IMG/VR virus record: IMGVR_UViG_3300021400_001206 | Location: 11,782-75,781 of that record | DNA: 64,000 bases | Strand: one strand, 5' to 3' | Origin: a virus | Shown: positions 10,969-33,560 of the stretch, one piece after another | Layout of the letters: every line of letters starts with the position of its first letter | How positions within the stretch are numbered: position 1 is the stretch's first letter | Translations under genes and position numbers: made by a program | The notes under the pieces: model-generated | What the model saw: the letters and a program-made list of their open reading frames with translations, nothing else | Database searches by the model: none | What the model was told of the DNA's origin: nothing

Positions 10969-11524
10969 ATTCATTATTCATTGGTAAATTAGTTTTAATA
11001 TTTCTACCACCGTTTGCATAAGTAGCAAAATCAATTACTTGTTTATATTTATTCATATCAAAACTTTCTACAATTTTTGCGGCGGCTTCTGCATTAGCAG
11101 GTAAATCATTAATAAGTGATTGAATAATTGCCGCAACGCTCATATGATTCTGTGTTAAAGAATCTTTAATCGCATTAAGTTGTACAAAAAGTTCATTATA
11201 TTCTTCTTCATTTATAGCTTGGAAAAATTGTTCAAAGAATCCATTACTTTTTAATGTATCATATAATTTTAATTCGTCTTCTCTTTGTTTTTCAGTAAAG
11301 GAAATATTTGTATATAAATATACTAAATTTAGTTCAAAATAAAGATTTAGTTTAAATTCATTATAAATACCATTTTCCTAAGCTTTTTGTAATGTAATCA
11401 TTAATAAATCGTATTTATCTCTTGCGGGAAGGTACTGTAAAACCTAAATCTTTTGCCCGCAAAAATCAAAAGTTTTCACTTGTGTATTAACTTTTAATTT
11501 CATATTTGCATATGATACTTTCAT
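10967..11524 (-). CDS. hypothetical late protein (~185 aa, 2 TAGs)
   Basis: ATG with AAAAGGAGAA RBS. Last gene of the minus-strand operon. Confidence 0.4.
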
Positions 11525-11587
11525 ATCCAGTTCTCCTTTTAACTCTTTTTTATATTATAATATAAAATTTTTATTTTGTCAAGTTAG

Positions 11588-12592
11588 TTAGGTTACTTTA
11601 AAGCCCCATGATTGTAATAATTTTGTTAAATTCTATAAAGCCTAATCCCGACCAGCTTGCTCTGCTTTTGTAGCAGCTTGTTTATTATTTTTAATAAAAA
11701 TATTATTAATAGCTTCTTTAAAAGATTGATCTAACTTAGAATTTTCTGTCATTTTTAAAATACTACTAATTTCTTTTAAAGATGTTCTAATTAAATTAGT
11801 AGTGGCAAGAGAAGGCGCTGCAGAATAAAATTTAATTTGGCTTAAAAGATAATCTCCTCCTTTTAATGAACTTGCTGTATTACTTCTAACTTCTGTTAAA
11901 GTTTGCTCTATTAGATCAGTAGAAACTTTTGGGGGAATTTGATTTCCTCGCTCAGCAACAATCTTTTTGTAAGCTTCATAAGCATTACCTTTATTAATCT
12001 TATGCCCATGTGAATGCTAAACTTTAACATAATCATAAACAGCAGAAAAGACTGTACTAGCATCGTTTACATCTGAACCAACAATATTTTTAGCTTCTTG
12101 ATATGTGTTTAATAAAGAAGTTTTGCCTCCAAACATTCTTAGCTTAAAAATATTATCTATTGTTGAACGAGTATTAAAAGAAGCTTTTGTATTTTTTAAT
12201 AACTACTCTAAAGTCAGTTGAAACTCAAATAATTGTCCACCTTTAATCAATCCTATTTCATATACTATTTTTTCATTTGTAAAAAATTCTCTAATTTTAT
12301 CCAATATAATATAACCTTGTTTTAATAATGAATCAATTTCAGATTCATTATAACTTAATTTTTTAAAAACTGCATATTTTATAGTTATCTCATTAGCTCC
12401 TATATCTTGATATTGGTTTTCAATGGGAGATATTTGACTTCCTAAAGTATTATAAAAATTTTCTAACTATAATAAATAATTATCTATATTCTGTCCAAGT
12501 AATAATAAATTACTACGAATAAAATCAGGAGACTTTGATGATAGAATTTCTTTTAAATTAGATTCTATAATTTCTACATTATTTATTGCCAT
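11588..12592 (-). CDS. hypothetical late protein (~334 aa, ~5 TAGs)
   Basis: Reconstructed by reading through TAG. RBS AATAGGAGATAAAGT. Confidence 0.4.
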
Positions 12593-12599
12593 ACTTTAT

Positions 12600-12665
12600 C
12601 TCCTATTTAACAAAAAACAGGGAGAGTAAAATTATACTCTCCCTATAAAATTTTTAATGTTTCAA
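12600..12665. terminator. strong hairpin terminator (AGGGAGAGTAtaatttTACTCTCCCT) flanked by A/T runs
   Basis: Perfect 10-bp stem directly downstream of the 12674-13683 gene. Confidence 0.6.
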
Positions 12666-12673
12666 AGTTAGCC

Positions 12674-13683
12674 TTACGGCGCATCTCCTTCTACACCATC
12701 TTCATTGTCTGGACCGTCAACAGAATCACCATATCTAGTAACTTGTCCATCAGCTTCAGTTCTAGGAATAGATTCTTCAATATTAAATCCTGTTGGATGT
12801 GGGAATAATGGTTTAGCTTCATATTTAGCTTCAGTAGCGTCATCAACAACCTGAATAGCACATAAAACTTTATTTGTTTTATTAAAATATGTATATCCAG
12901 GGAACGCGTCCATGGTAAAAGTAAACGTACTTGGATCACCAGTTGAAGCCATAGAGAATGTAAAGTTAGACTGAATCTTAACATTAGGGAATGTAAGATT
13001 TGCAGGTAAGTCTTTACCATCTGACTGACGTCTAAATAATGTATCAGCTTCTACATAATAGTATCCACCAAAGTGTTCTGCATCGATTTGAAGTTCGGAA
13101 ACAGTTCCTTCTTTCTTTAATACATAATAGTCAACCATAATAGCGCCTTCTAATCCACTAACTTTACTATGAGTTAATTTCTTACCAGCACTATCAACAG
13201 TCCATCCTGTAAGAACTTCTCCAGTTAAATCTCCATAAGCATCAAGTTTCATAATATAAATAGGAGCAGTCGGACAAATTTTTTCTGTAGATTCTAAAGC
13301 TTCTGTTAAATCAATTTCAAGTCCTCCACCCTGAGCCGTTTCAATTACTGCATTAGTAGTTTGATGGAAATGAATTGTTTTTTCAGAATCTGCCGCACCT
13401 TTTATAATACCAGCACCAGAAAGCATAGCAAAACTTACTGGTGAAAGAAGAGCATCTTCAACAGTAAATGTTAAAGTTTTTTCACCTTCCCAAGCGATTA
13501 AACGAGTATTACCACGACCACCTGTTGCATATACTGTAGTAGCCGCTCCTTCCATAGAAGAAGTTTTTGCAGAATCAAGATAAAAAACTGGTTGTCCTTT
13601 TGCGAAAATTTGGCTACCAATTCTTTGTTGATTCTTAGCCTTAAATACTACGTTAGCAATTTCACGTACACCAAATTTCATTT
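12674..13683 (-). CDS. abundant structural protein (336 aa, no TAG) with dedicated terminator
   Basis: Strong RBS TAAGGAGGAAATCC. The only large late ORF without TAGs and it has its own terminator, suggesting high expression. Identity (tube-like or other major structural protein) not resolved. Confidence 0.45.
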
Positions 13684-13694
13684 GGATTTCCTCC

Positions 13695-15075
13695 TTATAT
13701 TTTGTACAAAATATCATTATCCTAATCGTTAGACTAATTGTTATTATGAATATCTTTTAACCAATCTTCAGGGTCATCCATACCGGTACATCCGCCTGCC
13801 TTAAATCTCTACCAAGAGTCATAACGCATTTTTAATTCAAATCGGTTAAATTCATCCATTAATTGATAAATAGTATAATTCATTAAATCATTCATATCTT
13901 TTCTTTCGCCAACAGCAAGAATAGAGATATAACGACTTAATACTGACATCTTAGAATCTGGCGCCAGCTCCGCCTTTTTCTGTCTGCCTTTTTTTATTTT
14001 ATCAGCAATTTTTTTTGCTAACTATCCACTTGGATTATACTATTTATTTTCTTTATTTGTTAGGCAAAATATATTAGTGATAATTCCTTTAAAAATTTCA
14101 AAATTATTTTCATTAATTTCATTAACTTCGCCAGTCTAATTATCACGTAATTGTATTGCCTTTTTTCCCAACAAAATTTCTTTTGTTGGGAATAATAATG
14201 CAAGAATAGATAAAACATTTAATCTAGCCTAATGAGCCTATAAATTTTTTTCTTGTATTATCATCATTATTATATTAAAATTTGACATATTTGATAAATC
14301 AACTTTGTCCTAAGTTGCTAAATTTTCTTTATTAAATTTTAATATTTCGCATCCAAACCAAAAACGCTATTCAGTAATATAAGCTATTTCTTTCAGTCGC
14401 GGCTGATGAATTATTAACTGAGCCTATGGAAAAGGAATATCATTACCAGATAATAATAATAATTCATCAATCATTCTTTGAAATCCACCCATGCGCGCTT
14501 GGTAGAACGTCATCTGTTCCATGAATCGCTGAATATGTTAAAGTGTAACCAGATAAAGTCTCATCTAAAACTAATTCATTACAACCCGCAAACTGAAAGG
14601 TGCCTATTCCAGATAAACGTGCTTTGTTAAGAATTCCATCAATATAACCCGCAATTTTTAAAGGTCTAATTCTAAAATTTCCTAAATCCCAATAGTCAGT
14701 ATGACAAAGAATATCAATATGAACACTACAATCTCTAAACTCAGGATTTGTAATATTTGGTCTAAAATTATCAAAACTAATTAATAAATAACTTTTAACC
14801 TATTCATGTTCAGGCATTTTTATCTTAGGCTCAAATTTTATATAACCTTGCTATCTTAATTTAGCTAAACTCATATCTTTAATAGCATTTTGATAAACTG
14901 TGCTTGTTTTATTATCTAAACAATCTTTTGTATTTATTACTAACAATCTTTTTAATTCATCACTATAAGGCTGACTAGTAACAAAAAGTCTTTTTAAAAT
15001 TTCTTCTAAATCTTTCTAGCATGATAAAAAAGATGAAGTAAAATCAACAGGTCTTAAAGCTAAATCTCTCTTCAT
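13695..15075 (-). CDS. structural (baseplate/tail-like) protein, ~460 aa with ~13-14 in-frame TAGs
   Basis: Continuous frame only if TAG is sense. RBS AAAAGGAGTAGATAAAAT. Stop overlaps the RBS of the next gene. Confidence 0.4.
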
Positions 15076-15101
15076 ATATTTTATCTACTCCTTTTATCTC
15101 T

Positions 15102-16393
15102 TTATAAAGATACTATCTTTACATTTAATTTAATATCTTCTTGTCCTTCTACTCTATATATTAAAGTAAAAGATTTTAATTTTCCTACTATTTCTAATGG
15201 GAGAATTTTTAAAGAACTATTTAAATCTTTTTCTTCATCTCCCCATAATATATACCAATGTCCATTTTCAGCATTACATATTTCATAATATGCTTTACTA
15301 TATTGCTGTACTTGAGTTGGACCATTAATATATGCGGCAGTCTCATCTATAGATTCTTGTTGTCCAGTTTCTTGGTTTTCTTCAGCAGCTGCTTCCGCAA
15401 TAGTATTTTCAAAGAATTCATCTAAAAATACTTGAATTATACCGTCACCATAATAAGGATCAACTCCTACGACCTGCCAAGTTTTTTCAATATTCTTTCT
15501 TGGGTCTAAAATTTTAATAGTTTTAAATCTTTCGAAATAATTATTTGTATCTTCATCAGCCGTAATATACATAACCAATGAATAATTCATAGTATTCCAT
15601 TCAATTCCAGATTTTTGTGACCATTCAATGGAAGTTTCAACTGGGCCTCTAATATAAACCCAATAGTTCTTCTATCCTATTTTTACCTATTGATCACATC
15701 TACGAATTTCTGACCTAAAATACGCATCTTCTTCAAGAAACTATAAATAAACTAGCCAATGTGTATTAGTCTATTTCCAAGTAAAAGTATTTCCAGGTTT
15801 CATATTAATATCAACTTCACCTTCAGAAGTTTTACCAATTCTAGGTTCATTTAAACAAATATCTTTATATGGAATCGAAATAATTTTATTATCATAGGCG
15901 GGTTTATTCTTATCAGGGTTAATTAAACATCTAAACTATTTTCCATCTTCTAGAATAGCTGTTGCCGCCTGATAAGAATATAACAAAGCTTTCTTTAAAC
16001 TTCTTAATTTGTCATTAATAAATCTTTGCTATTGATTCCCGCCTTGATATTGCAATCTTTTATTTAATAATTCTAATGACATATCTTCTCTTTCAATTCA
16101 TTCATTAACCCTAAACATTCAAAAATAGTTCTACGATAACATAGAAAATCTTCTTCCTTAGTTAATGAATAAAGCCCTTCTAATTTATTTAACAGTGGGA
16201 AGAAGATTTCTGAATATTCATTATTCATCAATCTATACATTCCCACTAACTATTCTAAAATTGTTTCTAATGGTTTTTCCCAATCAATTCCCTATTCACG
16301 GTTTGGTAAAAGTTTATAAGTTTGATTTATTAAACTCTGAATTCTATTAACAATAATTTTATTTTCTATTTCAATACTATATTTTAAAATCAT
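15102..16393 (-). CDS. structural protein (~430 aa, 3 TAGs)
   Basis: Track ORF 15102-15590 is the C-terminal fragment. Extended upstream through TAGs to ATG at 16393. Confidence 0.4.
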
Positions 16394-16425
16394 TTAATAA
16401 ACTCCCTTTTTAATTAAGGATTATT

Positions 16426-18768
16426 TTAAGTATTTGAATTAACTGTTAAATTATAAATAAATTGGATTCCAACTACTCCATTTGTAATACTAGAATCAAT
16501 CTGGGAATTTTTTACTACGGAAACATTTATCCCTAATGGAGTTCCTGTATAAGTAAAAGTATAACCTGAATCTCCCTGCGAAACACTCTCTACTAAATAT
16601 CCATTAGATTTTCTAACTTTTAATTCAGTGCAAGTAACACTAATATCACTCTATCTATTGCTAGCTCCAATAAAAGGAATTGTAAAGAAAACACCTTTTC
16701 CATCACGAGTTACGATACCGCCCCCAAACCATGTTTGATTATTATAGATACCTGCATGAGGATATAAAAAATTAGACTGGGTTTGAGTAATAGCATCAAT
16801 TTTTATTTTATCACTACTAGACAATAGTCCATCTGCTGAATGAGTCGCTAATCCAATATTTTCAGGACCAGATCTATTAGAATTTGAAAAAGTAATTGAA
16901 AAAGTAGTATTAGAATTATTTCTTCCAACAATTATTTTATTATTATAAATTGCTAAACACTAAACAACCCAATTTTTATATGCCCCTTTACTTAAATCTA
17001 TTTCTGCAATTTTTTCTTTTGAAACTAAAGATTGCACCATAAGATAATTTGGAGATGTCGCTCCACCATGACCAAATATCATATAAATTTTTCCATCTTT
17101 AAAACGACATCCTTGTTGATAATTCTAATCATACTTAGTCTTCCATTGATTGTCAACATCTTCCCAACCTAAAGTTACTGAAGAATTTGATAAACTAGGT
17201 CGATAAAATTTTGTTATTATGTGCTCATTATTAAACTTTGCAGCTCCATCAGGATAAGGAACTGCGCGTGAAACATGCCCGATAGTATACAAATATCCAT
17301 TGTAGCTATGAAATTGGACCCAAGGAAAACCCCAATGTATCCCACTAGTAGTAAGACTATTAGCATCAATATTAATAGTTTGAACTAATGTTGATGAAAA
17401 AGTATTACCAGATCTTTGAATTCGTTCGACAAAGCACTATCCATGATTCGCATCTCCCGCTGTTACATATAATAAAGGAAAAGGATCATTTGCATCATAA
17501 AATTCATCTGAAAAACACAAACAATCAGCATGGTTTGTTGTGCTATCGCCTGTATAGCTTCCTAAATTGAAATAACTAATAGCATTTAAAGAAGTCGCAC
17601 TTGTATTTAGGTCATAAACTGCACATTGTCCACCGACTACCGTTCTAAACATTAAATTACCATATATTTCCATTCCTTGCCAGCCATGAGTTCCAAAAGC
17701 TGAAGGTTTTACCGTAGTTTTATAATCTTCTATATAACAAATTGGCTACTATAAAGAATTTAAAGTAATATGTTCTCCTGCATATTGGTATTTTGTCCCA
17801 CTATACTCAAGAGGCTCTTTGTAGCCAAGTTCTTCTGGTGATAAAGTCCAATCTGTTGCGATAGTACCATATTCAAGTTTAAAATTTTTAATCTTAAAAA
17901 TAGCACCAGATGTAGCTGATTTTAAAACTATTCTAATAGAACTATCCTAAACATAAGCAGCTTGTTCAGCAGTTACTTTAATAGTTTCTTTATATTTTCC
18001 CTAAGTAGTATTTCCAATAACTTTTTGAATACTCTAAGATGTATTATATCTATTTCCAACAGTAAGTAAAGAACCTTGACTTCCATTTATCTAAGGATAA
18101 ATATAAGCATCAACATTAGAATTTCCTGTTAAAGTATAATTAAAAGAAATTGTAAAAATTTCATCAGTAATATGAAAAACTCTTTTATCAATAGCATAAG
18201 CAGTTAAATTTAAATAAGGAGAATATTCTGTACTTGACGCTACTAAACAAGTAAAAGGTGCTGCAGTATCATCAATTAAATTACGTCCCCCTACATCTAA
18301 AGTATCAGATAATTGTTTATCTCTTTGTGACATTAAACCATCTGAACTTTGAGTTGCTAATCCAGTGTCTAAATAATTTCCAATTAATTGCCAGTATGAT
18401 CCATCATAAACAAAATCTAAAGTACCATATAATAAGTTTTTATTTGAAGCTGAAGCTATTAACGCTCCATTATGTTGTATTCTTTTTGCTCCTGTTGAAT
18501 TTACATTTAAAGTTGGCGAATTTGCAGTATTTTTATTTGTAAATTTTACAGTAACTTTTGCCCCTCGATCAAGAGTAAAAGTCCCTGAATCAATACTAAC
18601 TGTTTTTGCGGCAGTACTGGCGCCAGTACTACATATTCCAAACCTAATAATAGTCGCGCCAGTAATTCCGTCTTGTTTTATTGTTTGGTGGGTTTTTAAA
18701 GCATTACTATCCTATATTTGATATATATTCCCACCATACTCTATCTTATCTATAATATGTGTTGCCAT
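16426..18768 (-). CDS. tail fiber/tailspike protein 3 (~780 aa, ~8 TAGs)
   Basis: N-terminus MATHIIDKIEYGGNIYQ resembles the shared fiber anchor. Beta-rich Ser/Thr/Gly/Asn composition. Track ORFs 17437-17673 and 18091-18333 are fragments. Confidence 0.5.
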
Positions 18769-18800
18769 ATATAATTACCCTCTTTTATTTTATTTTAAAA

Positions 18801-20684
18801 TTAATCTGAACTTCCAGTAAAAGTCTGTGCCGCCGCAGTTGCTTCTGTATACCCAGTCCAAGCTTTAATTGCAGAAGCGCTTCTACTTGGTAATGTTCCT
18901 TGATTAAAAGTAATTTTTAATTTTTTAGTATCAGTAGTATCCATTTCAAAAGTAAGAGTGGGTAAAGTTCCTACATTTGTTATGGAATATATATCTGTTG
19001 TACTAGGAGTAATACTAACAGATGACTCTGAATTAGAGCCACCTGTTAATACAATTTTATCATTAGAATAAAGCGCTGGGGCGCGCACTTCTGCAGGAAA
19101 AGTTGCATTCTGAAGGCTATCATAACTATATAAATGACCTGTTTTTGCCATTGTGGATGGACAAGCCCATCCCATGCCACCATAACCTTGAATTAAAATA
19201 ATTGCGGCGGCGGAATTTGTTGCGGATATTTTAGAGTGTCTAAAAGTAAGTCTAACTCGTCCATACTGTGTGCTAGCGCTGTTTCTATAAGTTTTTAAAA
19301 TAGGAATATTTAAAATATTCCAACCTGAGTAACCTGCAATTCCAGTCCAATCTAAATGAACATCATAATCATTAGGAGCACTTTGCAATGCCTTTTCTAT
19401 TTTTACTTGCGTAGTATTGCCTTTTGTTGTCATATAGATGGCAATTTTATTTAATTCAGTATAAACTTGTGCCTAATAAGTTGATATAGTTATTCGTAAC
19501 ATATCTCCTATTGTACTTGAACCTTTTGCACTATGTTTACCTAAATAATGATTCCATCCGTCTCCAAATAAACCTAATTTAGCATTATCGGAACTTTCAT
19601 AATCATACCAAGTTTCTCCAGAGTCAGTAGAATATTCAATAGTTACTCCTTCGGGTCTTAAAAAAGCAAATCTATTAGCCCCTAAATCACTTATCATGGC
19701 GGCATCAAGGGGTCCATAGTCACCGCTAAAATTTTTTCCACCCCAAGTTAAATAAGCTTCAGGGAAAGAATGATCTTCTCCAGAAAAAATTCGAACACTT
19801 CCATCTTTATATCTATATACGGGATGAGATAACATTAGCTATAAATTAGTTGCAGAAGAAGCTATCCCTAAAAAAATATATATATTATTATCTTCTATTT
19901 CAGGAATTGTTTGAACAATAGGCTCATCAGCATCCATGATACCTGATCCATCTTCTTGCAGTGCACATCTTAAATATATAGGCAAAAAAGGAGTTAATGT
20001 CAATGCAGCTCCTGTGGTATTAAAAGAATATCCAAGCGCAAAGCCATTATATTGTTGAAATAATGTAGATGTTCCAGGACGACTTTCTGCAGCCACACTA
20101 CCAGTTGAATAAAAAATTCTAATATCTCCAAAAGGATCTATTTTTTCTTGGTTAACTGCTCTTTTTGATGTTGCATTAGTTGATGTTGATACATTAGCGG
20201 GTACATAATGAGTCCCATCTGCAGATGTAAATAATAATCTATATCTGTAAGTAAGTTGACTGACAGGCAAAGAAGTTGCATGCGTTCTTATTTGATAACC
20301 TAGTATATCAGTATTTGAATTGTACCCCCTATAACAAATCCACGCGCCATCTTGTCCTCTTGTACTGTCATAAACAAATAACATGGTATATTTTTCATTA
20401 AATATTGTGGTATCCGCAGTATTAAGTTCCATGTTATTATAAACAGGTTTTGCTCCTAAATTATTTATATTTATAGTAAAACCTGCCGCACTCGTTACAA
20501 CACCATTTTTTAATAAAACACAAGTTCCATCTCTTAATTCTGTAATTCCCTCAACAGTCGCAGTAAAAACTTTTGATGTAGAAGTGTCATCTACAACTCC
20601 AAAAGGAATTCCATTTCTTGCATATTTATCTTTTAAATTATAATAATTGCCATCGGGCAGGGTAATTTTGGAAATATCCGCCAT
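18801..20684 (-). CDS. tail fiber protein 1 (~627 aa, 2 TAGs)
   Basis: N-terminal MADISKITLPDGNYYNLKDKYARNG. Track ORFs 19839-20684, 19473-19835 and 18801-19433 are co-frame fragments separated only by TAG. Confidence 0.6.
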
Positions 20685-20699
20685 AAGATTACCCCCTTA

Positions 20700-22304
20700 T
20701 TAACTAACTGTAACAGTTTTTGATGTACCCGTGAATGTAGGTTGAGATACAGAACCTTTTGCAGTTGTTGTACCAGAAATTTGAGTTTTTGTTCCTGTAA
20801 ATGTAGGCTGAGATACAGAACCATTTGGAGTTCCAGAAACTGAAATATCACTTTCTGTTCCAGTCCAAGTTGCAGTATAAGCGCTAGGTACAGGAATATT
20901 TCCAGTTACAAGTCTAACTCCAGTACCAGTAAAAGTTGGCTGTGACACATTTCCAGTTGCAGTTCCACTTACTGTAATATTTCCTTCTGTACCAGTAAAA
21001 GTAGCACTAGTTGGAACAGAAATATTATCAGTAATCAATCTAACTCCCGTTCCAGAGAAGGTAGGTTTAGATACTGTTCCTGATGGAGTTCCTGAAACGC
21101 TAATATCCTATTCAGTTCCCGTAAAAGTAGCACTACTAGGAACAGAAATATCACCAGTTACCAATCTAACTCCCGTTCCAGAGAAAGTAGGCTTTGAAGA
21201 CTAATAAACGGCATCTCCATCTTTTACTGTCACATTGGTTGTTGTAATAGAAGCTCCGGTTGTATATCCCAATTGATATAAACTTAAATTCTAATCAGTA
21301 ACATCATAATATGTTATTGCATTACTTGGTGCTGAAGCCCCAGGAGCCGCCGCGACCACAGTTTTTGCAACCGTTACGCTAGTAGGATTTTTGATTGTTG
21401 TTGTTGAACCTGCGGTTTTCACTGAAATAGTAGGAGTTCCAACACTTCCTGCAGGAGTGTATGTTGCTGTTCCTGACGCGGCGGCACTGACTGTAGTAGT
21501 TTGATTTGAATTACTTAAACTAATACTTCCATGTGGTGTAAAAGTGCCTTCTGAAGTTAAACTATTTCCAGTAAAAGTAGGTTGTGTAACAGTTCCCCCT
21601 GGTGTATAAGTAGCTGTACCTGTTGTTGTTTTTACAGCAACAGTTGTATTTGAATTACTTAATCCAATGCTTCCTGAAGGAGTAAAAACTCCAGTAGAAT
21701 CAAAAGCAGTTCCAGTAAAAGTTGGTTGAGAAATAGATCCATCTGGAGTATATGTTGTAGTCCCTGATGAAGCTGGTGAAACTGTCGCAGTTTTATTTGA
21801 AGTCGATTTTGTAGTTACAGATACTGAACCTGCAGGTGTAAAAGTACCAGTAAAAGTAGAATTAGAACCAGTAAAAGTAGGTTTACTTACTGTACCTTTT
21901 GGTTGATAATTCCCGCTTGTGTTATCTGTTGCAGTAATTGTTACTGAAGAACTTTCTCCAGTAAAAGTTGGTTGACTTACAGTACCTTCAGGTTTATAAG
22001 TTCCACTCGCACTATCTTTATATGCAAGATCTCCTAAAGCACTTAAATCACCAAATTCCTGCCAAGCTGTACCATTAAAAATAAATTCTTTACTATTATA
22101 ATTAACGATATTACCTTTCTTGGCAGTAACATCCTATGTATTTATTTTAATCGGATTTGTAGTTGATCCGTCTGAAATTTCGGTAGTAGTGACTCCTAAG
22201 TAGTCAGTATAGCTTTGTAATTCTTCAATCAAAGCTCTTGCAGTAGCGTCTTTTATGTCATAGGTAGTCCCACTGGGCAAGGTAATCTTCGAAATATCAG
22301 CCAT
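20700..22304 (-). CDS. tail fiber protein 2 (~534 aa) with PTFTGT pseudo-repeats
   Basis: N-terminus MADISKITLPSGTTYDIKDATARAL, paralogous to fiber 1. Repeated GSVSQPTFTGT units in 20700-21038. RBS TAAGGAGGGGC. Confidence 0.55.
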
Positions 22305-22317
22305 TTTTTGCCCCTCC

Positions 22318-22719: not shown

Positions 22720-22733
22720 AAAACAACCCCCCC

Positions 22734-23451: not shown

Positions 23452-23474
23452 TTATATACCCCCTATATAAAAAA

Positions 23475-24062
23475 TTATTCTTTGTTTGGTTGGTATCTTC
23501 TTCCTGTTGGTGCGGCGGCAGTTGCATGACTTTTAATTGGAGCAGCCCTTCTAGTAGTTTTTAAATTAGATGAAGCAAGGCTGGAATCATCTTCACTTTC
23601 ACCATCATATTTAGTATTCTTAATTTCAATAGCTCTTGTTACGTCTAAGCCAAGTTTTTCTTTAATAGCTTCTCTTTTAGCCATATCATTTACAGGTAGA
23701 CTAACTGCCAAATCTTTAATTAAATCAAGAATCCCCTATGGAGCAAAATCTAAACAATCTAAAAATTGATCCAATGTACCTACTGTTAGTAATGTTTTTA
23801 CATCTTCTTCTGAATAATGATATTCTGGTTCTAATTTTGTATTAAACAACTCCATAATAGCATCTTCATCTGTAATTTCTAAATAATTTTTTAAAATAGA
23901 TTCTCCACCAGGTAAAAAAGATAACTTCTATAATTCATTAAAAGTAATATTTTTACTTTCTTTTGGATAAAAAGTTCTATTAACTCCAAGCTATGGAACT
24001 CTATATCCAACAATTCCATCATATTTATTTATAACTTTTATAGCTTTATTTCCATCAATCAT
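23475..24062 (-). CDS. hypothetical head-proximal protein (~195 aa, 4 TAGs)
   Basis: Reconstructed through TAGs. Directly downstream of the putative capsid gene. Confidence 0.35.
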
Positions 24063-24155
24063 ATAAAATCTCCTTTTATCTCTACTTACAAAAAATAGGG
24101 GAGAATTAAAACAATTCTCCCCTATGTAATTTTATTGATAATTAATCCTTACTTA

Positions 24156-25217
24156 TTATACACCATAATAAGGATTTAACGCTTCATTCTTATAGATACA
24201 AATACCTGGATGTACTAAATAAGTAGCTACACCAAATTTTTGATAAGTCTGAATTTCTGTTGACCAATCACGATTATCAAAAGATTTAACCTGTGCAGAA
24301 CCTTCAAAAGCAACTTTTACAGGTTTTTCTGAACCAGTCGGAATGATATAAGCAAGCTGAGGATTAATAACTTTATTAATTTTAGTAGCTGTCATACCTA
24401 CATTATCTTCAATAGACTGCGGAAGAATAATTACTCTATGTCCTTTATAAGTAGCAAAATATCCATTGTTCCAGATTTCTTCTTTCATTCCATCTGACCA
24501 ATTATCACTCGAAGCTGGAAGCATTTTTGAAGCAAATTCAAATGTACAATAAATTGTACTCTTTCCGCCATAGCTGTCAGCAAGTGCTAATAATGTATCC
24601 ATCTTGGCTTCGTCGAAACCAGTATTAACTACCTTTTGAAGTGCAGGAATACTATTGATTAAAGCTTCAAGAGCTTTTGCGATTTCTTTATAAACCTGTT
24701 CATCCATTCCTTCAAGAACAAGACTATAATAATCATTCATTGTCATACGTCCATCAAGAAGTTCTTCCCATTCTACACGAGAAGCTCCGCCGTATGCAGC
24801 TGTAGCAACTTCGAATGAATATCCATCAAGCTTGAAGACTTCATATCTACCTGCTAAACCGACTCTAGTCACGAACTGTTTAGCACGCTTTCTTGAAGCC
24901 TCACTAATCTTAACCTTATAAACAGGCTTTGTTCCTTGTGCAAAAGTACGAACATCAGCAAACTGTCCATAAGATTGCATAATCTTTTGCGGAAGAACTT
25001 CCGTAAGACTAACCTACATTAATGTGTAAATAAGATTTTTATTTTCTCTAAAATCTTGAGGAGTTGCCCCAAGTTCATTTAATTCCTTAATAAAAGTTTT
25101 ATTCAGAGCTTCAGCAGAAAGTTTTTCTCCACCAAAAGAAAAAGTTGAAGAAGGATTTAATGAAGCTTTCGCATTGGCTCTAGCTAATTCAATTAATTGA
25201 TCTTTTTGTAATGCCAT
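24156..25217 (-). CDS. putative major capsid protein (~353 aa, 1 TAG joining track ORFs 25014-25217 and 24156-24980)
   Basis: Size and position (after scaffold-like protein) are typical of HK97-fold capsid proteins. The two track ORFs are co-frame across a TAG. Confidence 0.45.
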
Positions 25218-25238
25218 TTTATTTCTCTCCTTCCCTTA

Positions 25239-25799
25239 TTACTGCACTCTCTGAATTTTAACACCAGGCTGTCCATCTGGCATTGTATATTCTTTAACAA
25301 CCTTCCAAACCATTCCAGATGCAGGCATACTAGCTCCAGTAGCTTTAGTTAAGAAACCAGTAGTACCAGGTTGTAAATAATTTCCAACTGAAAGTTCTAC
25401 TGTACCAACTTCAGCAGTATCAGAAGTATTTGCAACTGCAATTGTATTAGTTGTCATAATATCACCAACATAAGTTCTGATTAAACGAGGGAATATTCTT
25501 CCATCGGTAAAATCCTCTGTTTTATATACAAAATCCTTATGATGTTGCTTTCTTTCATCATAAAGCTTTTCTTCATTATAAACAAGCATGAACTCGCCTT
25601 CACCGTCAAAATTTACTTCACCAGCCGCATAATCATACTTAGCAAACTGTCCTTGTTCAAGCTGAGTAATAGAATCTGCTCCAGTGTCTCCAACCTTCAC
25701 ATGTGCCGGTAACTGAGCGTAGATTTGACCGGTAACAATACCAGAAAGGTGATTAGGTTCAACCTGTCCATATCCTTTTCTCTTCATTGTAAGTGCCAT
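25239..25799 (-). CDS. hypothetical head protein (186 aa, no TAG), possible decoration/minor capsid protein
   Basis: Complete ORF between scaffold-like and capsid genes. Confidence 0.35.
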   Translation of the reverse strand: MALTMKRKGYGQVEPNHLSGIVTGQIYAQLPAHVKVGDTGADSITQLEQGQFAKYDYAAGEVNFDGEGEFMLVYNEEKLYDERKQHHKDFVYKTEDFTDGRIFPRLIRTYVGDIMTTNTIAVANTSDTAEVGTVELSVGNYLQPGTTGFLTKATGASMPASGMVWKVVKEYTMPDGQPGVKIQRVQ

Positions 25800-25823
25800 G
25801 TTTCAGCATCCTCCTAATAAAAA

Positions 25824-27170
25824 TTAATGTTGTTCTTGCTCTTTAACAGCTTTCACCCATTCTGGTAGGCTGTCATTTTTATCATTATTTAAAGTATAAG
25901 TAACAATTGTTTCTTCTTCATTAGACTCTTTTTCTTTATCTAATGAAAAACTTACTTTCTTATCAAAACAAATAACCGAAAGTTTTGCTTTAATTTCTTC
26001 TAAAGTGTACTTCTCTTTATTGCTAATAACATCTGCTTTATCTGCATCAGAAAGCATATAAAATTCAGCAATAAGCGCATCCTTTTTCTGATTATCAATT
26101 TCTCTTTTAAATTCTACAAGTTCTTGATATTGATTTTGAAGAGTCTAATAAGAAGTTTTCAAAGTTTCAAGCTAATTTTTAATTAATTCATATTTCTTTG
26201 CATTTTTCTTATCTTTGTCATCATCTTCATCATCCTTATCTTCACTGTCTGATGAATCTTCAGAAGAATCCTCTGAATCTTCAGTTTTTTCTTCTTCTTC
26301 TTTTTCTTTTTCTTCATCCTTTTTTACATAATCAGCAGGAGCAGAAGTATCTTCACTTTGATCAACTACAGGAGTTGTTTCAATCTTTTCTTCTGACTGA
26401 GTAAACTCTGTTACAACAGAATCAGAATTTTCATTTTCAACAACTGTAGTTTTTTCAAGATTATCCATCTGTTGTCCTCCTCCGCTTAAGGCATTCTTTA
26501 AGTCTTGCATCATACTAAAATATGTATGTTTAAAATTATCATCTAATGTAAATTTTAAACTTACATCTGGAGCCGTTACAGAAGCGCCTTCGAAGCAAGG
26601 CTCAACATCGTCTCCTAATATACAAATTTTTTGAATAATTGCATCATCTATAATAAAGAAGTCTAATCCATTTTCATAATTTGTTTGCCAATTTCCTTTT
26701 AAAGTTTCTGGTTTAAATTCCATTGATTGTGGACGACCTTCATTCACAGGTAAGCTGGATTCTGGAAATTGATCAGTCCAAAGATAACCTGTTGTCATAA
26801 GATATTTTCTTACAACAGTATTACCCATACCATCGCTATCCTAAAAATCTTGAAACCAAACTTTTGCATCAGGAGATACAAAGCCATAAGGAACAGTTTG
26901 ACATTCGAATTTTACTCCTTCATCATCAATAATTACCTTTTCTCCATGATCTGTAAAATCTTCTTTACTATCTCTATAATAACCTACAATTGGCGCACCT
27001 CGCAACCTTTTTCCAATTTCAACAGCAACCTATTTAGAAATAAAACTATGGTTTCTATTCGCGCCAAGATAAAATACTTTAATATCACATTTAGACATTA
27101 AAGGATTTATATCAAGAGGTTGAAGATTTAAAAACTCAGGAGAGTTTATTGTTGCAACTGATTGGTGCAT
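25824..27170 (-). CDS. scaffolding-like protein (~448 aa, 4 TAGs): N-terminal globular part, long acidic Ser/Asp/Glu tract, C-terminal coiled coil
   Basis: Track ORFs 26172-26828 and 25824-26057 plus an upstream segment are co-frame across TAGs. Acidic tract DSEDSSEDSSDSEDKDDEDDDKDKK. Confidence 0.45.
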
Positions 27171-27324
27171 AATAAAAATTCTCCTTTTTCATTTCCATAT
27201 ATAATAAAAATTTGAATAAGTTTCTTAATAACTTTTGTCCAAAAAATTTTTAATTCATACTTTCACGATTTTGAATAGTTTTTGTCGCTTTTTCATCATC
27301 TGCTTTTTCTGGTCTTCCCGCGCC

Positions 27325-28821
27325 CTATTTTGCTTCTCCGCCAGTTTTATTTCGATTTAGAACTTCTGCATTCATAGTACTAGACATTAATGGTGGAATA
27401 AAGACATTAACTAAATCAAGAATATCATTTTCAAAGTATGCTGTTGCTAAGATAGCACTTTGAGCTTGTCCAAGAGCTATTTGAGGTAACATCTTAGAAT
27501 AACCTAATTGAGTATGCTCTTTATATTGTTTAGCTAAATCTTTATAATTATAAATAGTTGTAGGAAGAATCTGTGCCCTATAATTAACTTTTTTTGGACT
27601 TTTATTGTAAGGTATTAATAAAGTATTTAAAAAAGTTTCAAATTGTTGAATCAAATTCCACATTGAAGCTTCATCGTTCAAGATAGATTTTTCAAGAGCA
27701 ATATTACCATCCGTATTAAATTGCATTTGTGAAACACCAGCTTCATTATAAACTGTACGTTCAACTTTTTCTAAATCATCTGTTGTAGTAGTAGTATGAT
27801 TATCCGCCATATCCGCAACGTCAACATCAGCGAAAGTGGTTAAAACATCAATTCCAATAGCCTTAGATAACATTTGTACCGCATTATTATGAAGTTGTTG
27901 AGCTTCATCAACATCAAATACTAAATCACCATTCTTATCAATAGGCATCTTCTGAATAATGATTTTTAATAATTGTTGTTGCATCTTGCGGCGATCAAGG
28001 TCTTGGGCGGCATCTAAGTCAATTATAGCAGGAATAACCGCAATGAAAGGTGGAAAGTCTTCTCCATTCAAATTAAATTTTATAACAGATCCAACTTCAA
28101 GTAAATACCAACCTGAATCATCTCCTAAAAATTCTGGTTTTAATTTACCCTTCTTATAAAGTCTATAACCTTTTTCAAATTCTTGTGGAAAAATTTTTAA
28201 TATCTTCATTCTTTCTTCCACATCAACAAACATATCGTCAAAATATTTCATATTAAATTCAACCGCAGGTTGCCCATTTACAACAAATCTTGACCTGCAA
28301 TATTTTGGTGGTAATTCTTGAACTACAACAGTTCCTTCTTTTGCAGTTAAATAACCATAATAACAACCATTCTTTATTACTTTTAAAGCTACATCACCAA
28401 AGAATTTTTTAGCTTCAAATTTATCTAAATAATTTAAAACTTTATTAAAACCTTCAAGAAGTTTCTCTTGTTTTATAGATTCCTTATTATAATATGGTGT
28501 AACTAACCAATCATATCTATACATATAAGCCATGTAACGGCATAATCTTTGATAGATACCACTAATTTTATAAAAATAATTAGAAATATCTCTCATTTTA
28601 TTTAGGTCTCCATAATGAATGGCTCTTAAAACCTGTTCTTTATCTGCCAATTGAGGATTTACTCTACGTAAATCACCTAGTTTTAAAATAGCATCAGACA
28701 CTGATTTTACACCAATTCTAATTTTTGCAAAGTCAGTAGGCACATATCCAACACTATCAATAGGAATTTGATCATCTTCAGCCCCAATCATATTAAAGCC
28801 TTTTTTCTTTATCTAAGCCAT
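27325..28821 (-). CDS. putative portal protein (~495 aa, 1 TAG near N-terminus)
   Basis: ~490 aa gene directly downstream of terminase. 5' end uncertain (ATG at 28821 or 28791). Confidence 0.45.
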
Positions 28822-28853
28822 TCGATTTATCAACTTTAGATACCTCTCCTTCT

Positions 28854-29213
28854 TTACCATCCATACGCCGCTTTAAGAATATAATCATAATTTACACGTG
28901 CCTAATCCCAATAAGGAATAATAACTAATTTTATATTATGATCTCGACAATACTATCTTTTTCTCATATCATTATACTGTTGTTTTCTTAATCCATTATA
29001 ACCACCAAATTTATCTTTAGCTTCATAATGTTGAATTCCCTGAAACTCAATTAAGAAATCAATATTATGCTAATCATCAAAAACCGCAAAATCAAATCTT
29101 AAAGGACGTCCAGTATTACTTACTAAATCTGGAAAAGAGTATTCTTCTACGAACTCTAAACCAGACTCTTGTAATATTTCTTCTATTTTAATTTCTCCTC
29201 TGGATGCTCGCAT
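28854..29213 (-). CDS. Vsr/DUF559-like PD-(D/E)xK endonuclease-fold protein (~119 aa, 3 TAGs)
   Basis: GRPLRFDFAVFDD...IDFLIEFQGIQHY resembles the RxDF...IExDGxxH signature of Vsr/DUF559 endonuclease-like proteins. Own RBS GAAGGAGAAAAAAT. Confidence 0.4.
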
Positions 29214-29274
29214 ATTTTTTCTCCTTCACTATATTATATAAAAAAAACTTTTATAAACTTAATAACTTTTGACC

Positions 29275-32200
29275 TTAAGTTTGAGTAAAAAATAAAAAAT
29301 CTGATATATTTCTTTTTCTTCTTCTTTTATTTAACTCTTCTTCATAACGTATATAATAAAGTCCATAAATAAAGGCAGAAAATTTATCTTTTTTAATACC
29401 TCTATTACTTTGCTTTAAAATAATATTAACACCCTAATTTTCTTCTACAAGATTTAACATTTGCTATTTTAAAATAGACGTTAAAATGAAAGGACGTAAA
29501 TATTCATTTCTTTCATCCATATTCATATTTTGCCCTTGTTTAGTAGACATTAGCTTTGTCTTCGCTAAACTTTCATCTATTAAAAATCTAATTTTGCCAC
29601 TAAACATTTGAGTTTGAGCATAACTATATGCTTCTGTATTAATTGGCGCGTTAGCTTTTATTATATATAATATATCACGCTAAGTTTCTGGAGTTACAAA
29701 TTTCTTATATTCTGGATATTCATCTGTATTAAAAACTCCAAAAGGTGGTAAATACTATCCATCCACAGTTTCTTGAGCTTTTATTAAATAATCAATTAAA
29801 CCAACACCCAATCCATTACCGTCAATAGCAATTCGTTTAGGCTTATATTTATAATACAAATGTTTTATATGAATACATTGAGTCTCAAAATGCTAAGCAT
29901 CATAAGTATAAATATTAACAAGAGTCTTATGAGCAGCACCTTGTACTTGCGGCGTTACTTTAAAAACACAAATTTCAGTTGTACATCCTATACGTCCAAC
30001 GTCCACTCCAAATACATAATATGCGGTTTTGGAAGATCTTCCACTATACTCATACTATGGTTGCAGTAAAACTCGATATTTATCAAACTTCTCAGAAGAG
30101 AAGAAAGCATTTTCTACATCTCCGGACCAAATACTTCGATATTCTCTGTTAAAAGACTAATCATTAAATGTTCCTTGTAATCTTAATTGTTCAACGAAAT
30201 CTTCATCTAATAATCCAGAAACAACAGGAGTTTCATAAGTTCCGCCCATTATCATATACTAATCAGGATCTATAATAGAATTAATTAAAATCTAAATTAA
30301 TTTATGATATGCAAATGAATTTTTCCATCCTGCGGTTGTTATATAAATTTGAGATTTATTAACATTTTCTTCTTTATGGCGGCTACCATCTGAAAGACGT
30401 CTATCAACGTTTGTAGTAGGAATAATAACTTCATTCAGAATATCTCCATCAATAAGAACACACTATTCCATTAAACCGCCAGTTCGACGTTGACCTCTAG
30501 AAGATTGCCTTGCCGCAAGAATATCAATAGTTGAGCCATTTTTAAAAACGTATTTTACATTATCTTTTGATTTTGTAGAAACACCTCTGTCCCAATTAAT
30601 TTCATCATTTAAACCAGGAATAAGTCTACAAATTTCTTCAATTTTTGCAACAGTAATACTAGCAGCTTGCTCTTTTCCACCTGTTGTTACAAATAAATGT
30701 GAGTTAGGATATAAAATACATCTAATCATTAAAGCCATCATTGATAAAAACGACTTTGAATAAGCACGTGGGAATGTTGCATATACGTACCTATGTCTCA
30801 TAACTATCCGCAAAAAGACTCTTTGATAAAAAAGAAATTCAAAAGTACTATCCTTACCTTTAATAAAATCAACAAAAACATCTGGATACTATCTAAAATA
30901 GGCAATTAAATCTCTTAATTGATCTATATCTTGTAAAAGTCTTTCTTCTGATATTCCTTGTTTTCGGTATTCTCTCTCAGAAGACAATTGTAACAATTCC
31001 TTTAGCTTCATGACGTTTGAACCCTCCGATTCAAATATTCTTTTTCAATATCTTCATCATTTAAATTATCATCATGAGCTTTCATATGATTTAAGGAATT
31101 TTTATAATTTACAAAATCTTCATCTTCAAGTTCAACTGTATCTAAACCTTTTGCTCTAGCATCTTTTTTATCTTTTTTCATTTCTTCTGAAATCCGCTTA
31201 TCTTGAAGATATTTTTCAATTTCTTGAGCCAATGATTTATCTTCATAAATAAGATTTCTATTATATTCTTTTAAATCTCTAATAATCTAATCAACTATAT
31301 CTTGCGGCTAATTACATTTATACCTAGGAATTGAACCACTATGAGTCTAAACAAAATCTACAATAGCAGAAGCAGAATCTATACCTATACCATTACCATC
31401 TTTATTTTGAGCCTCTGTGAATTTTGCGGATTTCATCATTGTATCATAAACACGCGATAACTTTTGATAAGAATCAATATCGCCACTATCAATAGCCTAA
31501 TCCATCTTTAAAGAGGTTTTACAAATTTTCTTTAAAGTGTCAATACGTGCCGCACCTTGAATATCAAAAGAACTCATAAATTCATTATATAATTGTTCAA
31601 GAGCAACCCATTGACTAGGTCTATAAAGACGTCCCCACTTAATTGCAAGATACATTTTATCTTCTTGGTCCAAATCCGCACCAGGATCAGTGATCTCACT
31701 CTAAGGTATAAACAACTGCTCTTGAAATGGATTCTTTACCTGACTTAAAGCTTCAGCATAAGATTGCGGCTATCCATGAATTTCAATTTTATCTCCAATA
31801 TGTTGACCAGTAATATTGTTTCCCCATTGTTGAGGCAATTCTTTATTTTGAGTCTCAGTACTTACTAAAGTTTGATATTCAGATAATGAAATTTTTCCTT
31901 CACTTAATTTAACTTTAAGTTCAGCTTCATATCTAGCTTTTTCTTCTGCTTCTTCTTTTTCTTTAGCAGCCTTTTCCGCCTCCATCTATTTTTGGATTTT
32001 TTCAGTATCTTTATAGCCATATTTATTCCACTGTTTAAGTTTCATCTTAGCAAGATACTTACCAATAACAGACATTCCATTCATTTTATAAGGATCTTTT
32101 GCAAAAGCCTTATCTCTTAATACATTCCATTCAACAGGAATATAAGGAACATCCATTTTTTCAAGAATCCATTCAAAAGTATGAGGATCAAAATTATCAA

Positions 32201-32348
32201 TATGTGCGGTTATACATGCTTTGCAAATTTCACATTTACTTCCATCTTTATAACTATAAAAATTTATTTGACCAAATTTCTTCCCGCATCTTTCGCACGT
32301 ACATTTGCCGTTCTAATCTGGCTATTGTCCCATTATTTTCTTTGCCAT
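29275..32348 (-). CDS. terL: terminase large subunit with long N-terminal extension (~1024 aa, ~15 TAGs)
   Basis: Nuclease-domain motifs YVFGVDVGRIGCTTEICVFKV and IAIDGNGLGVGLIDYL plus IYITTAGW. N-terminal C4 zinc-ribbon (CTCERCG...CEICKAC). Track ORFs 31008-31232, 31770-31985 and 30463-30813 are co-frame fragments. Confidence 0.6.
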
Positions 32349-32392
32349 AAAATTCTCCTTTCTATTATTATAGAAAAAAATACTATATAGAA

Positions 32393-33529
32393 TTAAGTAG
32401 TTTTGACCTGTATTTTATTTTTTTTATTTCTACAACATTTGCACATACTATATAAACCATCTTTTGCGGTTTTATTTTTTGTAAAAAAATAAGGATGTGC
32501 AAGTTTTATTTCATGACATCTAGAGCATCTTTTCCACTTACCTTTTTCTTCAACAGTATAGTGCCAGATTATCCAATCTTCTTTTGCTCTTTCTGAAATT
32601 ATTTTTGGGATTTTTTTGCGCCAAACGACAGAGAGGTATTCAATAGAATAAGTAACATTATATTTCTATTTAATTCGTGCGGAAATGTCTTTATTTTGTA
32701 ATCCATCAATTTTATATTTTACAATATCATATAAAATAGGGTAATCTTCTTTTAACGATCTATCTATAAGATTATCAAAATCCTCCATTAGAAACCACCA
32801 ATCTCCATCAAAATTTCCCCAAGCCTATTCTTTGATTTTGGAATAATTACATAATAAACAACTCACATGATGAGGATCAAATAATGATATTAAACAATTG
32901 CTTATTGGATTTCCGCTGTCATCGACTTTTATTTTTTCATTTAAATTAATTTGATTTACATTCTTAGTTAATTTCATGGAGGTAATAGGAGGTTTAAATG
33001 AGCTTTTTAAGATATATTGATCTTGTCTCATTTCTATTAATTGTTTAGTTAATAGATATTTTTTTCTTCCAGTTGCTACCTTTTGTTGAATTTCAATTTT
33101 TTTTATTTCTTCTCTTAATTCTCTTAATCCTGGTATTGTTTCAATATCGTCTTCAGTAATCTATATTTTTGGAACTAATAGAATATTTTTATCCCCGCCA
33201 GTCATAAAATTATAAATACCATCTTCGCCATTTTCTAATTTTAAAACCAACCCCTAATAAGAAGTCTCTCTCTTATTAACAGTTACCATTCTATTGTCTG
33301 TTAATACAGTTTTTTCTTTTTTGCTTTCAGGAGTCTCAACTAAATATCTAGTTAATTCTTCTAAATAATATGGAGTCAATTTATCTACCGCAACGCTATT
33401 TACAATTTCATGCACTAATCTATTTCGCTATTGTATATCTGTAATTGTATAATCTAGTTTAGCGTAAGGTCTTTTACTATTGTTGTTTTCCAATAGAGGA
33501 GTATCTTTTATAACATCTTTTTGTTCCAT
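32393..33529 (-). CDS. zinc-ribbon DNA-binding-like protein, first gene of late operon (~378 aa, 5 TAGs)
   Basis: C-terminal KGKWKRCSRCHEIK...DGLYSMCKCC Cys cluster. RBS AAAAAGGAGTATTT. Position upstream of terL suggests a possible small-terminase or packaging role (inference). Confidence 0.35.
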
Positions 33530-33560
33530 AAATACTCCTTTTTATTAATTCTATACTTAT

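Follow-up and report, generated by a model that had tools for sequence, protein, structure and literature searches.

How can a phage carry the same in-frame stop codon many times over in some of its genes and never in others? The question is raised by a 64-kb stretch of DNA from IMG/VR virus record IMGVR_UViG_3300021400_001206 (64,000 nucleotides, positions 11,782 to 75,781 of that record; hereafter the window), in which a first-pass annotation had noticed that the density of TAG differs sharply between genes. It had suggested that the capacity to decode TAG serves as a regulatory layer. Here we describe evidence that TAG appears to behave as a third glutamate codon in this phage, that a phage-encoded tRNA with the anticodon CUA would read it, and that its density follows the identity of the gene. 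We place the probability of this whole explanation, in which graded avoidance would set the density of the codon, at about 0.7.

The window (G+C = 32%) matches contig NODE_862 of ENA ERZ1756080 (110,397 bp, coverage 324). Two flanking 10-kb loci from that same contig, L046 on the left and L042 on the right, bring the DNA covered to ~84 kb altogether. Judged by its sequence, the phage is at least 110 kb long, is kin of SPbeta, EF1 and Phass-1 and comes from rumen-type metagenomes; relatives are abundant in IMG/VR on contigs of up to ~145 kb, the near-complete ones being ~130-145 kb. A block for replication and nucleotide metabolism occupies the + strand from 1 to 10.9 kb (helicase, SPbeta-type DnaE, a guanylate-kinase-like gene, NrdD, NrdG and Dut) and is followed on the - strand by a late module for packaging, head and tail (10967-33529; 21 genes, 7329 codons). 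Many small genes lie on the + strand from 33.6 to ~57 kb and again beyond 60 kb.

Recount of in-frame TAG codons

In the recount TAG was read as sense, and TAA and TGA as stops. This reading roughly doubles the summed length of those open reading frames (ORFs) that have at least 150 codons, and the genes for the terminase large subunit (TerL), the portal protein, NrdD and Dut become full length. Across 33 + 40 = 73 genes the terminator is TAA in 65, TGA in 8 and TAG in none. Two other reassignments were tried and discarded: reading TGA as sense lengthens the long ORFs less than reading TAG as sense, and reading TAA as sense yields ORFs that overlap on both strands and look spurious. To judge from these reading frames, TAG is a sense codon here, with TAA and TGA as the terminators.

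The uneven density of TAG survives exact counting. Over 33 genes the codon is distributed non-uniformly both per codon (chi-square 96.6, 32 degrees of freedom, p 2e-8) and per glutamate-family codon (chi-square 88.6, p 3e-7), a Monte Carlo test of the heterogeneity gives p of at most 5e-5, and the late module taken by itself still gives p 0.001-0.006. The late module holds 93 in-frame TAG next to 407 GAA and 55 GAG, and its terminators are only TAA or TGA; at its rate, the probability of finding no TAG in the early set would be 1e-27.

Most of the counts that the first-pass annotation had made by eye are reproduced. The absence of TAG that it reported for helicase, DnaE and NrdG is seen again in the C-terminal part of a helicase of UvrD_C_2/AAA_30 type (2-814, +; 270 codons), in a DnaE-type DNA polymerase III alpha resembling YorL of SPbeta (1596-5564, +; 1322 codons, 99 of them Glu codons) and in the NrdG activase (9057-9542, +; 161 codons); the full-length helicase gene, which lies in L046 (8632-9813), likewise has none. 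Three TAG each had been attributed to the anaerobic ribonucleotide reductase NrdD and to the dUTPase Dut, and three are found in the 769 codons of the former (6195-8504, +) and in the 149 codons of the latter (10477-10926, +); the guanylate-kinase-like gene (5551-6126, +) has 2 in 191 codons. The structural gene described as TAG-free at 12674-13683 extends to 13717 on the - strand and contains no TAG in 347 codons, 26 of which are Glu codons. The small cassette genes had been called essentially free of TAG: the early region of ~40 small genes (33670-56712, +; 3444 codons) has no in-frame TAG, and the 40 + strand ORFs that are supported there by a ribosome binding site contain 338 Glu codons.

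Two of the earlier gene calls have to be divided, while the TAG-richness reported for them stands. What had been taken for a terminase of 1024 amino acids with ~15 TAG consists of two ORFs in different frames with a 4-nt overlap, namely TerL (29275-31011, -; 11 TAG in 578 codons) and a phrog_3314 protein upstream of it (31008-32348, -; 9 TAG in 446 codons), which bring the total to 20. Similarly, a presumed gene of 460 amino acids at 13695-15075, credited with ~13-14 TAG, does contain 14. It is split between two frames and two PHROG families: a phrog_4051 protein (13695-14522, -) with 11 TAG in 275 codons, or 38% of its Glu-family codons, and a virion structural protein of phrog_6123 (14467-15075, -) with 3 in 202. 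The phrog_4051 gene is the TAG-richest among those that had been listed.

The amino acid aligned with TAG

Alignments of late genes place TAG at glutamate positions. When the TerL codons are aligned with those of 26 relatives, which contain 0 to 17 TAG in this gene, 38 different columns hold TAG in some genome; the other codons of these columns are GAA (488), GAG (130) and GAT (95), versus CAA (27) and CAG (4). Over 17 late genes, the residues that face TAG of the window are E 821, Q 139 and D 70, and the window residues that face TAG of relatives are E 451, D 71 and Q 39. In TAG-free relatives, which use the standard code, 46 of the 76 window TAG columns have E as their majority residue and 7 have Q; where conservation is at least 80%, the numbers are 18 for E and 1 for Q. 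TAG columns show the substitution profile of GAA/GAG columns, unlike that of CAA/CAG columns. Finally, in late-gene pairs with at least 88% amino-acid identity the partner of a TAG is GAA in 43%, TAG in 42% and GAG in 12% of cases, and CAA and CAG are absent from its top five partner codons; by this pairing, with no detectable CAA or CAG, TAG behaves exactly like a synonymous Glu codon.

Individual sites can be compared with conserved motifs and solved structures. One TAG of TerL falls on E183 of a GGLxEE motif, whose Glu is invariant in a six-sequence TerL alignment. The motif resembles Walker B, and since PDB sequence searches for TerL gave no match, either with the single sequence or with a profile, the Walker B assignment of this TAG-encoded Glu stays at the level of the motif. 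One TAG of the dUTPase aligns with the Glu of the motif DSDYRGE in two of the four solved dUTPases displayed, and the two alignable TAG positions of NrdD lie opposite E or D of solved NrdD structures, the first TAG of the gene falling within a gap of the best match.

As a control for E versus Q, the same pipeline was run on five more distant recoded loci (L076, L077, L113, L115 and L127). Their conserved TAG columns hold Q in 26, K in 3, P in 1 and E in 0 cases, whereas in the window's clade (~72 loci) E occupies 78 such columns, D occupies 9, K 5 and Q 3; Phass-1, which NCBI places under "Caudoviricetes code 15 clade", gave Q in 6 of 6 conserved TAG columns. The method thus separates E from Q, and the phage family holds both kinds of reassignment, which we refer to as the Glu-clade and the Gln-clade. 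An all-against-all comparison around the sigma-factor gene described below was too noisy to type TAG elsewhere, owing to spurious ORFs among the small early genes. On the strength of these alignments TAG can be said to behave as a third glutamate codon in the window's phage.

A related possibility is that TAG is decoded ambiguously, either as a mixture of Glu and Gln that would arise from partial amidation of Glu-tRNA(CUA) by GatCAB, or partly as a stop that yields truncated products by design. The minor Q signal (139 of ~1000 aligned residues; 7 of 76 columns) could be explained in this manner, and an ambiguous intermediate would ease the close kinship of the Gln-clade and the Glu-clade. The conserved columns are nevertheless nearly pure E (18 to 1 and 78 to 3) and one TAG sits at the invariant Glu of TerL, and we regard ambiguous decoding as improbable. 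Still harder to maintain is ordinary code 15, in which TAG would mean Gln as in crAss-like phages, Lak and Phass-1 and the Glu signal would be an artefact. The same seven Q-majority columns speak for it, as do the published recoded phages with standard-code hosts, which are all TAG→Gln or TGA→Trp, and the public databases, which translate these genes with Q. Yet all alignment tests on the window's clade put E far above Q, the positive controls (Phass-1 and the five other loci) return Q, 55% of the TAG sites in pairs of at least 88% identity are GAA or GAG in the partner, with CAA and CAG absent from the listed partners, and the suppressor tRNAs of the Gln-clade (UGGGGAG..., G73) are unlike that of the window's clade (C1-G72, A73). 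We consider membership in code 15 very improbable.

Two further codes were rejected. Pyrrolysine decoding is at odds with TAG columns that are Glu, with K as a minor residue, and the label "Pyl" given by ARAGORN reflects the CUA anticodon alone; pylS and pylBCD were not seen among the called genes of L042 and L046. A code of the peritrich type, with both TAA and TAG as Glu, conflicts with TAA as the terminator of 65 of the 73 genes.

A separate observation concerns the capsid-like gene at 24156-25217 (-), where the public proteins P0001 and P0002 show Q67 at the window's TAG and relatives have GAA or GAG.

A phage tRNA with the anticodon CUA

A tRNA(CUA) gene lies on the same contig at 19342-19415 of L042, which corresponds to ~72,460 in window numbering and is ~8.5 kb past the right end of the window. 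It belongs to a cluster with the order Arg, Ile, a sigma-factor gene, Asn, Leu, Asp, Glu(UUC), tRNA(CUA), Met, Thr and Leu. The tRNA(CUA) is kept on those Glu-clade contigs whose late genes were typed as E, and in some relatives a tRNA-Glu(CUC) directly precedes it. Within the window no suppressor was found: ARAGORN and Rfam give tRNA-Lys(UUU) only (46407-46482, +). A 73-nt tRNA-like element directly upstream of this gene (46331-46403, +) was considered as a suppressor and discarded, as it is degenerate and has the anticodon AGT, not CUA. The element has a good acceptor and T arm, with C33 instead of U33; it is missed by Rfam and needs a relaxed threshold to be reported by ARAGORN.

The phage suppressor has C1-G72, G2·U71 and A73, and the same holds for the phage tRNA-Glu(CUC). 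The two anticodons CUC and CUA differ by one change, at position 36, which matches the codon step GAG<->TAG. Suppressors that occupy the same place in the tRNA cluster of relatives (L330, L333, L336 and L339, of which L336 and L339 are Glu-clade contigs) share the D-arm GUCAAGYGGUU(U)AAGAC, with one base changed at most; the variable loop has four bases in three of the four, and A73 is present in three of the four. Among 120 sampled bacterial genomes, nearly all from Firmicutes, the D-arm GUCAAGCGGUU(N)AAGAC occurs in 112 tRNAs, of which 110 are tRNA-Glu and one is tRNA-Gln. The suppressors of the Gln-clade (Phass-1 Sup2 and L344), by contrast, start with UGGGGAG and have G73, like tRNA-Gln of Firmicutes. 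An exact search of bacterial genomes for the D-arm of this phage's own suppressor gave no match, and a ranking of the suppressor by overall similarity was biased once loci chosen by their anticodon arm had been included. The tRNA evidence for Glu may be called supportive, and is not decisive, because the overall similarity of the phage's own suppressor is uninformative.

In the early genes GAG accounts for 22% of GAA+GAG, against 12% in late genes, where TAG (93) exceeds GAG (55), and TAG columns are ~two-fold enriched in GAG among relatives; both observations fit a GAG<->TAG path and an origin of the suppressor by CUC->CUA.

Inside the tRNA cluster, ~5.3-6.2 kb past the window's right end, lies a gene for a sigma70-family factor (L042 15332-16183; 0 TAG), which probably directs late transcription. 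Neither release-factor nor aminoacyl-tRNA synthetase genes appear in the precomputed Pfam marks of the ~84 kb covered. Another Glu-clade genome, IMGVR_UViG_3300021399_000007, encodes an ochre-reading tRNA with the anticodon UUA that adjoins tRNA-Leu(UAA) (L225 2898-2972 / L337 14099-14173).

TAG density across gene families

In order to compare families, TAG was pooled over 80 loci of recoded relatives, nearly all from the window's clade, and expressed as its share of Glu-family codons. The share is 0 for the helicase family and 0.1% for the DnaE family (2 TAG in 27,442 codons of 23 recoded relatives). It remains low for the families of the capsid candidate (1.0%), of the neighbouring gene at 25239 (1.0%), of the major tail protein (2.0%), of gene 23475 (2.9%) and of the scaffold-like protein (4.2%), and is 2-6% for NrdD, NrdG and Dut. 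Higher values are reached by the families of the portal protein (15%; 14.9%), phrog_3314 (16%), the HNH endonuclease (20%), TerL (21%), gene 15102 (21%), gene 13695 (27%; 26.7%) and gene 22318 (41%). The value for gene 13695 refers to the Glu-clade and stands against 52% in the Gln-clade.

The share of each gene in the window follows the pooled share of its family (rho 0.72), and the ranking of families agrees between the Glu-clade and the Gln-clade (rho 0.87, p 1.4e-5, 16 families). Of 23 recoded relatives, at ~65-92% identity, 21 have a DnaE gene that is without TAG and in synteny. Individual sites, on the other hand, turn over fast: at ~82% identity only ~40% of TAG sites are shared, so that the constancy lies at the level of the gene and not of the site. 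In the Gln-clade TAG stands at Gln positions, which are not homologous to the TAG sites of the Glu-clade; shared descent of sites is thereby excluded, and the same ranking in both clades excludes amino-acid content and drift as explanations too. As the pattern also recurs in ~70 related recoded phages, TAG density is to be seen as a property of the gene, and not as an accident.

Among the TAG-poor late genes, the one at 12674-13717 (-) encodes the major tail or tail tube protein (phrog_2729), as its homologs in siphophages of Bacillus and Lactococcus are annotated. The major capsid protein candidate, of HK97 fold (24156-25217, -), has 1 TAG in 353 codons; its predicted model is of low confidence and matches almost solely HK97-fold major capsid proteins. 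The head-module protein adjoining it (25239-25799, -) has none in 186 codons. The window's own portal gene (27250-28860, -; phrog_2739) has 2 TAG in 536 codons, and an HNH/homing endonuclease next to it (28854-29213, -) has 3 in 119. The TAG-poor late genes are probably those for high-copy virion proteins.

Promoters and expression class

The + strand from 37284 to 55096 holds 36 perfect TTGACA-17-TATAAT promoters, so placed that each precedes a small gene free of TAG and that almost every small early gene has one. Many of these early promoters have their -35 hexamer inside a GC-rich hairpin (GGGGGTTGAcaaaccTCAACCCCC) with an A-run before it, which amounts to a repeated promoter/hairpin cassette. 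Another perfect sigma70 promoter, at 1346, lies upstream of DnaE, and further ones lie upstream of DnaB/YorH, of a DHH gene and of the tRNA/sigma cluster (L042 14309). The late strand has perfect sigma70 promoters only at 33589, before the first gene of the module, and at 11582, before its last gene; none was found inside 11.6-33.5 kb. The sigma factor, DnaB and the helicase have 0 TAG. The DHH gene encodes a DHH/DHHA1 phosphoesterase ~3-5 kb upstream of the window (L046 5987-7789), has 6 TAG in 600 codons, and sits amid TAG-free replication genes directly behind its perfect promoter (L046 5919).

Arranged by class, the TAG share rises from 0 in early genes and the core replisome to 1-4% in high-copy virion proteins, 2-14% in nucleotide metabolism and 15-40% in low-copy late genes. 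A distribution that is non-neutral and linked to the expression class inferred from sequence is well supported by the comparisons between relatives.

Avoidance or regulation of TAG use

Our explanation of this gradient can be described as follows. A phage tRNA with the CUA anticodon would read TAG, its gene standing in a cluster beside tRNA-Glu and sigma-factor genes, downstream of a perfect host-type promoter. The glutamyl-tRNA synthetase (GluRS) of the host probably charges it: as a guess at the mechanism from general knowledge of the identity rules of GluRS and GatCAB, a host GluRS that tolerates A36 would do so, and without a U1-A72 pair GatCAB would be kept from converting Glu to Gln. A gene that contains TAG could then be completed only once tRNA(CUA) is present, and probably less efficiently than with GAA. 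Selection would purge TAG from genes that are translated first or independently of the suppressor (early cassettes, sigma factor, DnaB, DnaE and helicase), and also from the proteins of highest copy number (capsid, its neighbour at 25239, major tail, scaffold). TAG would drift to 15-40% of the Glu codons in late genes of low copy number, among them those for TerL, portal, HNH and baseplate-like proteins. In effect, part of the late programme would be gated at translation.

A crude neutral expectation can be set against the data. From the composition of four-fold-degenerate sites (T 0.51, A 0.37, G 0.07), the TAG share would be ~0.54, which is above that of every observed gene (maximum ~0.4). 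Positive placement of TAG is thus not required by the data, and graded purifying selection against a codon that depends on a suppressor, and is probably inefficient, would be sufficient. The pattern resembles deliberate enrichment less than it does a graded avoidance of a codon that is costly. Of the regulatory layer proposed by the first-pass annotation, one half is borne out, as the distribution is non-neutral (rho 0.87 across clades); the other half, the active use of TAG, is not, with all genes below the neutral 0.54.

The strongest competitor is the active use of TAG as a regulator, whereby positive selection would put TAG in certain late genes in order to delay or limit them gene by gene. 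Such a model, together with a bias toward lysis genes, has been published (Borges et al., bioRxiv 10.1101/2021.08.26.457843), and the identical ranking of TAG-rich families in the Glu-clade and the Gln-clade could be read in its favour. Translational gating would also be useful for the late module and the DHH gene, which lie behind perfect host-type promoters and yet depend on the suppressor. Avoidance alone could yield the same ranking, however, all genes being below the crude neutral share; the fast turnover and lack of conservation of TAG positions argue against a site-specific function, and lysis genes were not identified in the window. We therefore hold active regulation to be possible, if rather unlikely. 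That the heterogeneity is historical, with TAG-free genes recently acquired from standard-code sources or with drift or Glu content as the cause, would suit the mosaic nature of phage genomes and the codon style of the early genes (GAG share 22% versus 12% in late genes), but is hardly credible, as p 3e-7 remains after Glu-family normalisation, DnaE is syntenic and TAG-free in nearly all recoded relatives, TAG-poor and TAG-rich genes are interleaved in one operon-like module and the pattern is convergent in the Gln-clade.

Several points weigh against graded avoidance of a Glu-decoded TAG. The amino acid and the timing are both deduced from sequence alone, and the abundance of the TAG-poor proteins from the annotation of homologs and a model of low confidence. 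The agreement of TAG with expression class holds for the class inferred from sequence and not significantly for a codon-bias proxy (NNC over NNT, and G+C at third codon positions), where there is a weak trend (rho -0.38, p 0.09). The DHH gene with its 6 TAG and the whole late module lie directly behind perfect sigma70 promoters, so that promoter class alone fails to predict TAG content. The suppressor has an overall similarity of ~70% to many tRNA classes, which leaves its ancestry unassigned, and its D-stem has diverged from the Glu signature. The remaining ~25 kb of the contig, outside the DNA covered, could hold a phage gene for an aminoacyl-tRNA synthetase or a release factor, and the 7 of 76 Q-majority columns would allow for some ambiguity or E/Q exchange.

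Further features of the window

Two adjacent fibre-like proteins of the late module, at 18801-20684 and 20700-22304 (-), have a common N-terminus (MADISKITLP), and the second is made of SQPTFTG/KPTFSG repeats; their TAG shares of Glu-family codons are 8% and 27%, respectively. Two small ORFs at 56864-56992 and 57016-57222 (-) have a hydrophobic N-terminus, and the latter, with a highly charged C-terminus, is holin-like and has 2 TAG in 68 codons; within the window no endolysin or other lysis gene was identified. In the relatives L021, L023, L024, L031 and L035-L039 the match to TerL spans 2.0-2.6 kb, not 1.7 kb, which indicates an insertion of ~0.3-0.85 kb, perhaps an intron, intein or homing endonuclease; in the window, the TAG-rich HNH gene lies between portal and TerL. 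No useful family emerged when ten late proteins were scanned against Pfam, and an AlphaFold2 model of the major tail protein from the single sequence was useless (predicted local distance difference test score, pLDDT, 30).

Relation to known recoded systems

The recoding of late, structural and lysis genes and a model in which a switch of code times the infection are known for TAG→Gln and TGA→Trp phages (bioRxiv 10.1101/2021.08.26.457843). Borges et al. found these to be the sole reassignments where the code of the phage differs from that of its host, and attribute the restriction to Gln and Trp to the susceptibility of GlnRS and TrpRS (bioRxiv 10.1101/2021.08.26.457843). Phass-1 (OQ749652.1) and its relatives have been described as TAG→Gln, and in the paper on Lak phages TAG was occasionally aligned with E, yet the conclusion was Q. 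A full-text search of the literature, the coverage of which is incomplete, found no report of TAG→Glu in phages, and we think it probable that this reassignment is really unreported. The idea of a gating of late genes by recoding is already published, and the Glu meaning of TAG is the added finding.

The window's phage resembles the code-15 phages (crAss-like, Lak, the Garnet, Jade, Sapphire and Topaz clades and Phass-1) in several respects: TAG is concentrated in late and structural genes and missing from early ones, recoding of the DNA replication genes is variable, a phage tRNA(CUA) is encoded, the genome is of low GC and TAA is the dominant terminator. With Phass-1 it shares the per-gene pattern of TAG and, as a distant family member, a capsid protein that is 51% identical. 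It differs from these phages in that its TAG aligns with Glu and not with Gln, and its suppressor is without the Gln-like acceptor end of Phass-1 Sup2 and L344.

The peritrich ciliate nuclear code (NCBI table 30) assigns both TAA and TAG to Glu. Here too glutamate takes over a stop codon of the UAR type, but the peritrich code is eukaryotic and nuclear and includes TAA, which is the main terminator in the window's phage (65 of 73 genes), whereas the reassignment in that phage works through a virus-encoded tRNA and affects its genome only in part. In the T4-like phages that bioRxiv 10.1101/2021.08.26.457843 cites, late genes use codons that are served by phage tRNAs, and translation efficiency is tied in a similar way to the stage of infection. 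The codons in question are ordinary sense codons that the host can read, whereas TAG is a terminator in the uninfected cell, which makes the dependence on the phage tRNA absolute.

Implications for the family

In current tools and databases (prodigal-gv/geNomad, table 15) any phage with amber recoding is taken to use TAG→Gln, and the automatic use of code 15 probably mistranslates the window's clade. The translation of these genes would be wrong at ~1% of residues, including the probable catalytic Glu of the terminase. If the Glu code is true, GluRS can be hijacked too, and the non-discriminating GluRS of hosts without GlnRS could be involved; a natural pair of tRNA(CUA) and GluRS would also be of interest for genetic-code engineering.

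Altogether, it seems reasonably likely to us that there is a clade of large (~110-145 kb) rumen/gut phages of Firmicutes type with a code not known from viruses or bacteria, in which UAG means Glu, UAA and UGA are the stops and the suppressor is apparently derived from tRNA-Glu, whose sisters, including Phass-1, read UAG as Gln, and that the per-gene use of the codon is convergent between the two. If this is true, one stop codon has been captured for two amino acids within one phage family. Two codes in one family represent a natural experiment, in which the per-gene pattern of TAG appears to be independent of the amino acid (rho 0.87). To our knowledge, this comparison would be the cleanest comparative evidence that the density of a recoded codon is set by the function or expression of the gene and not by its history.

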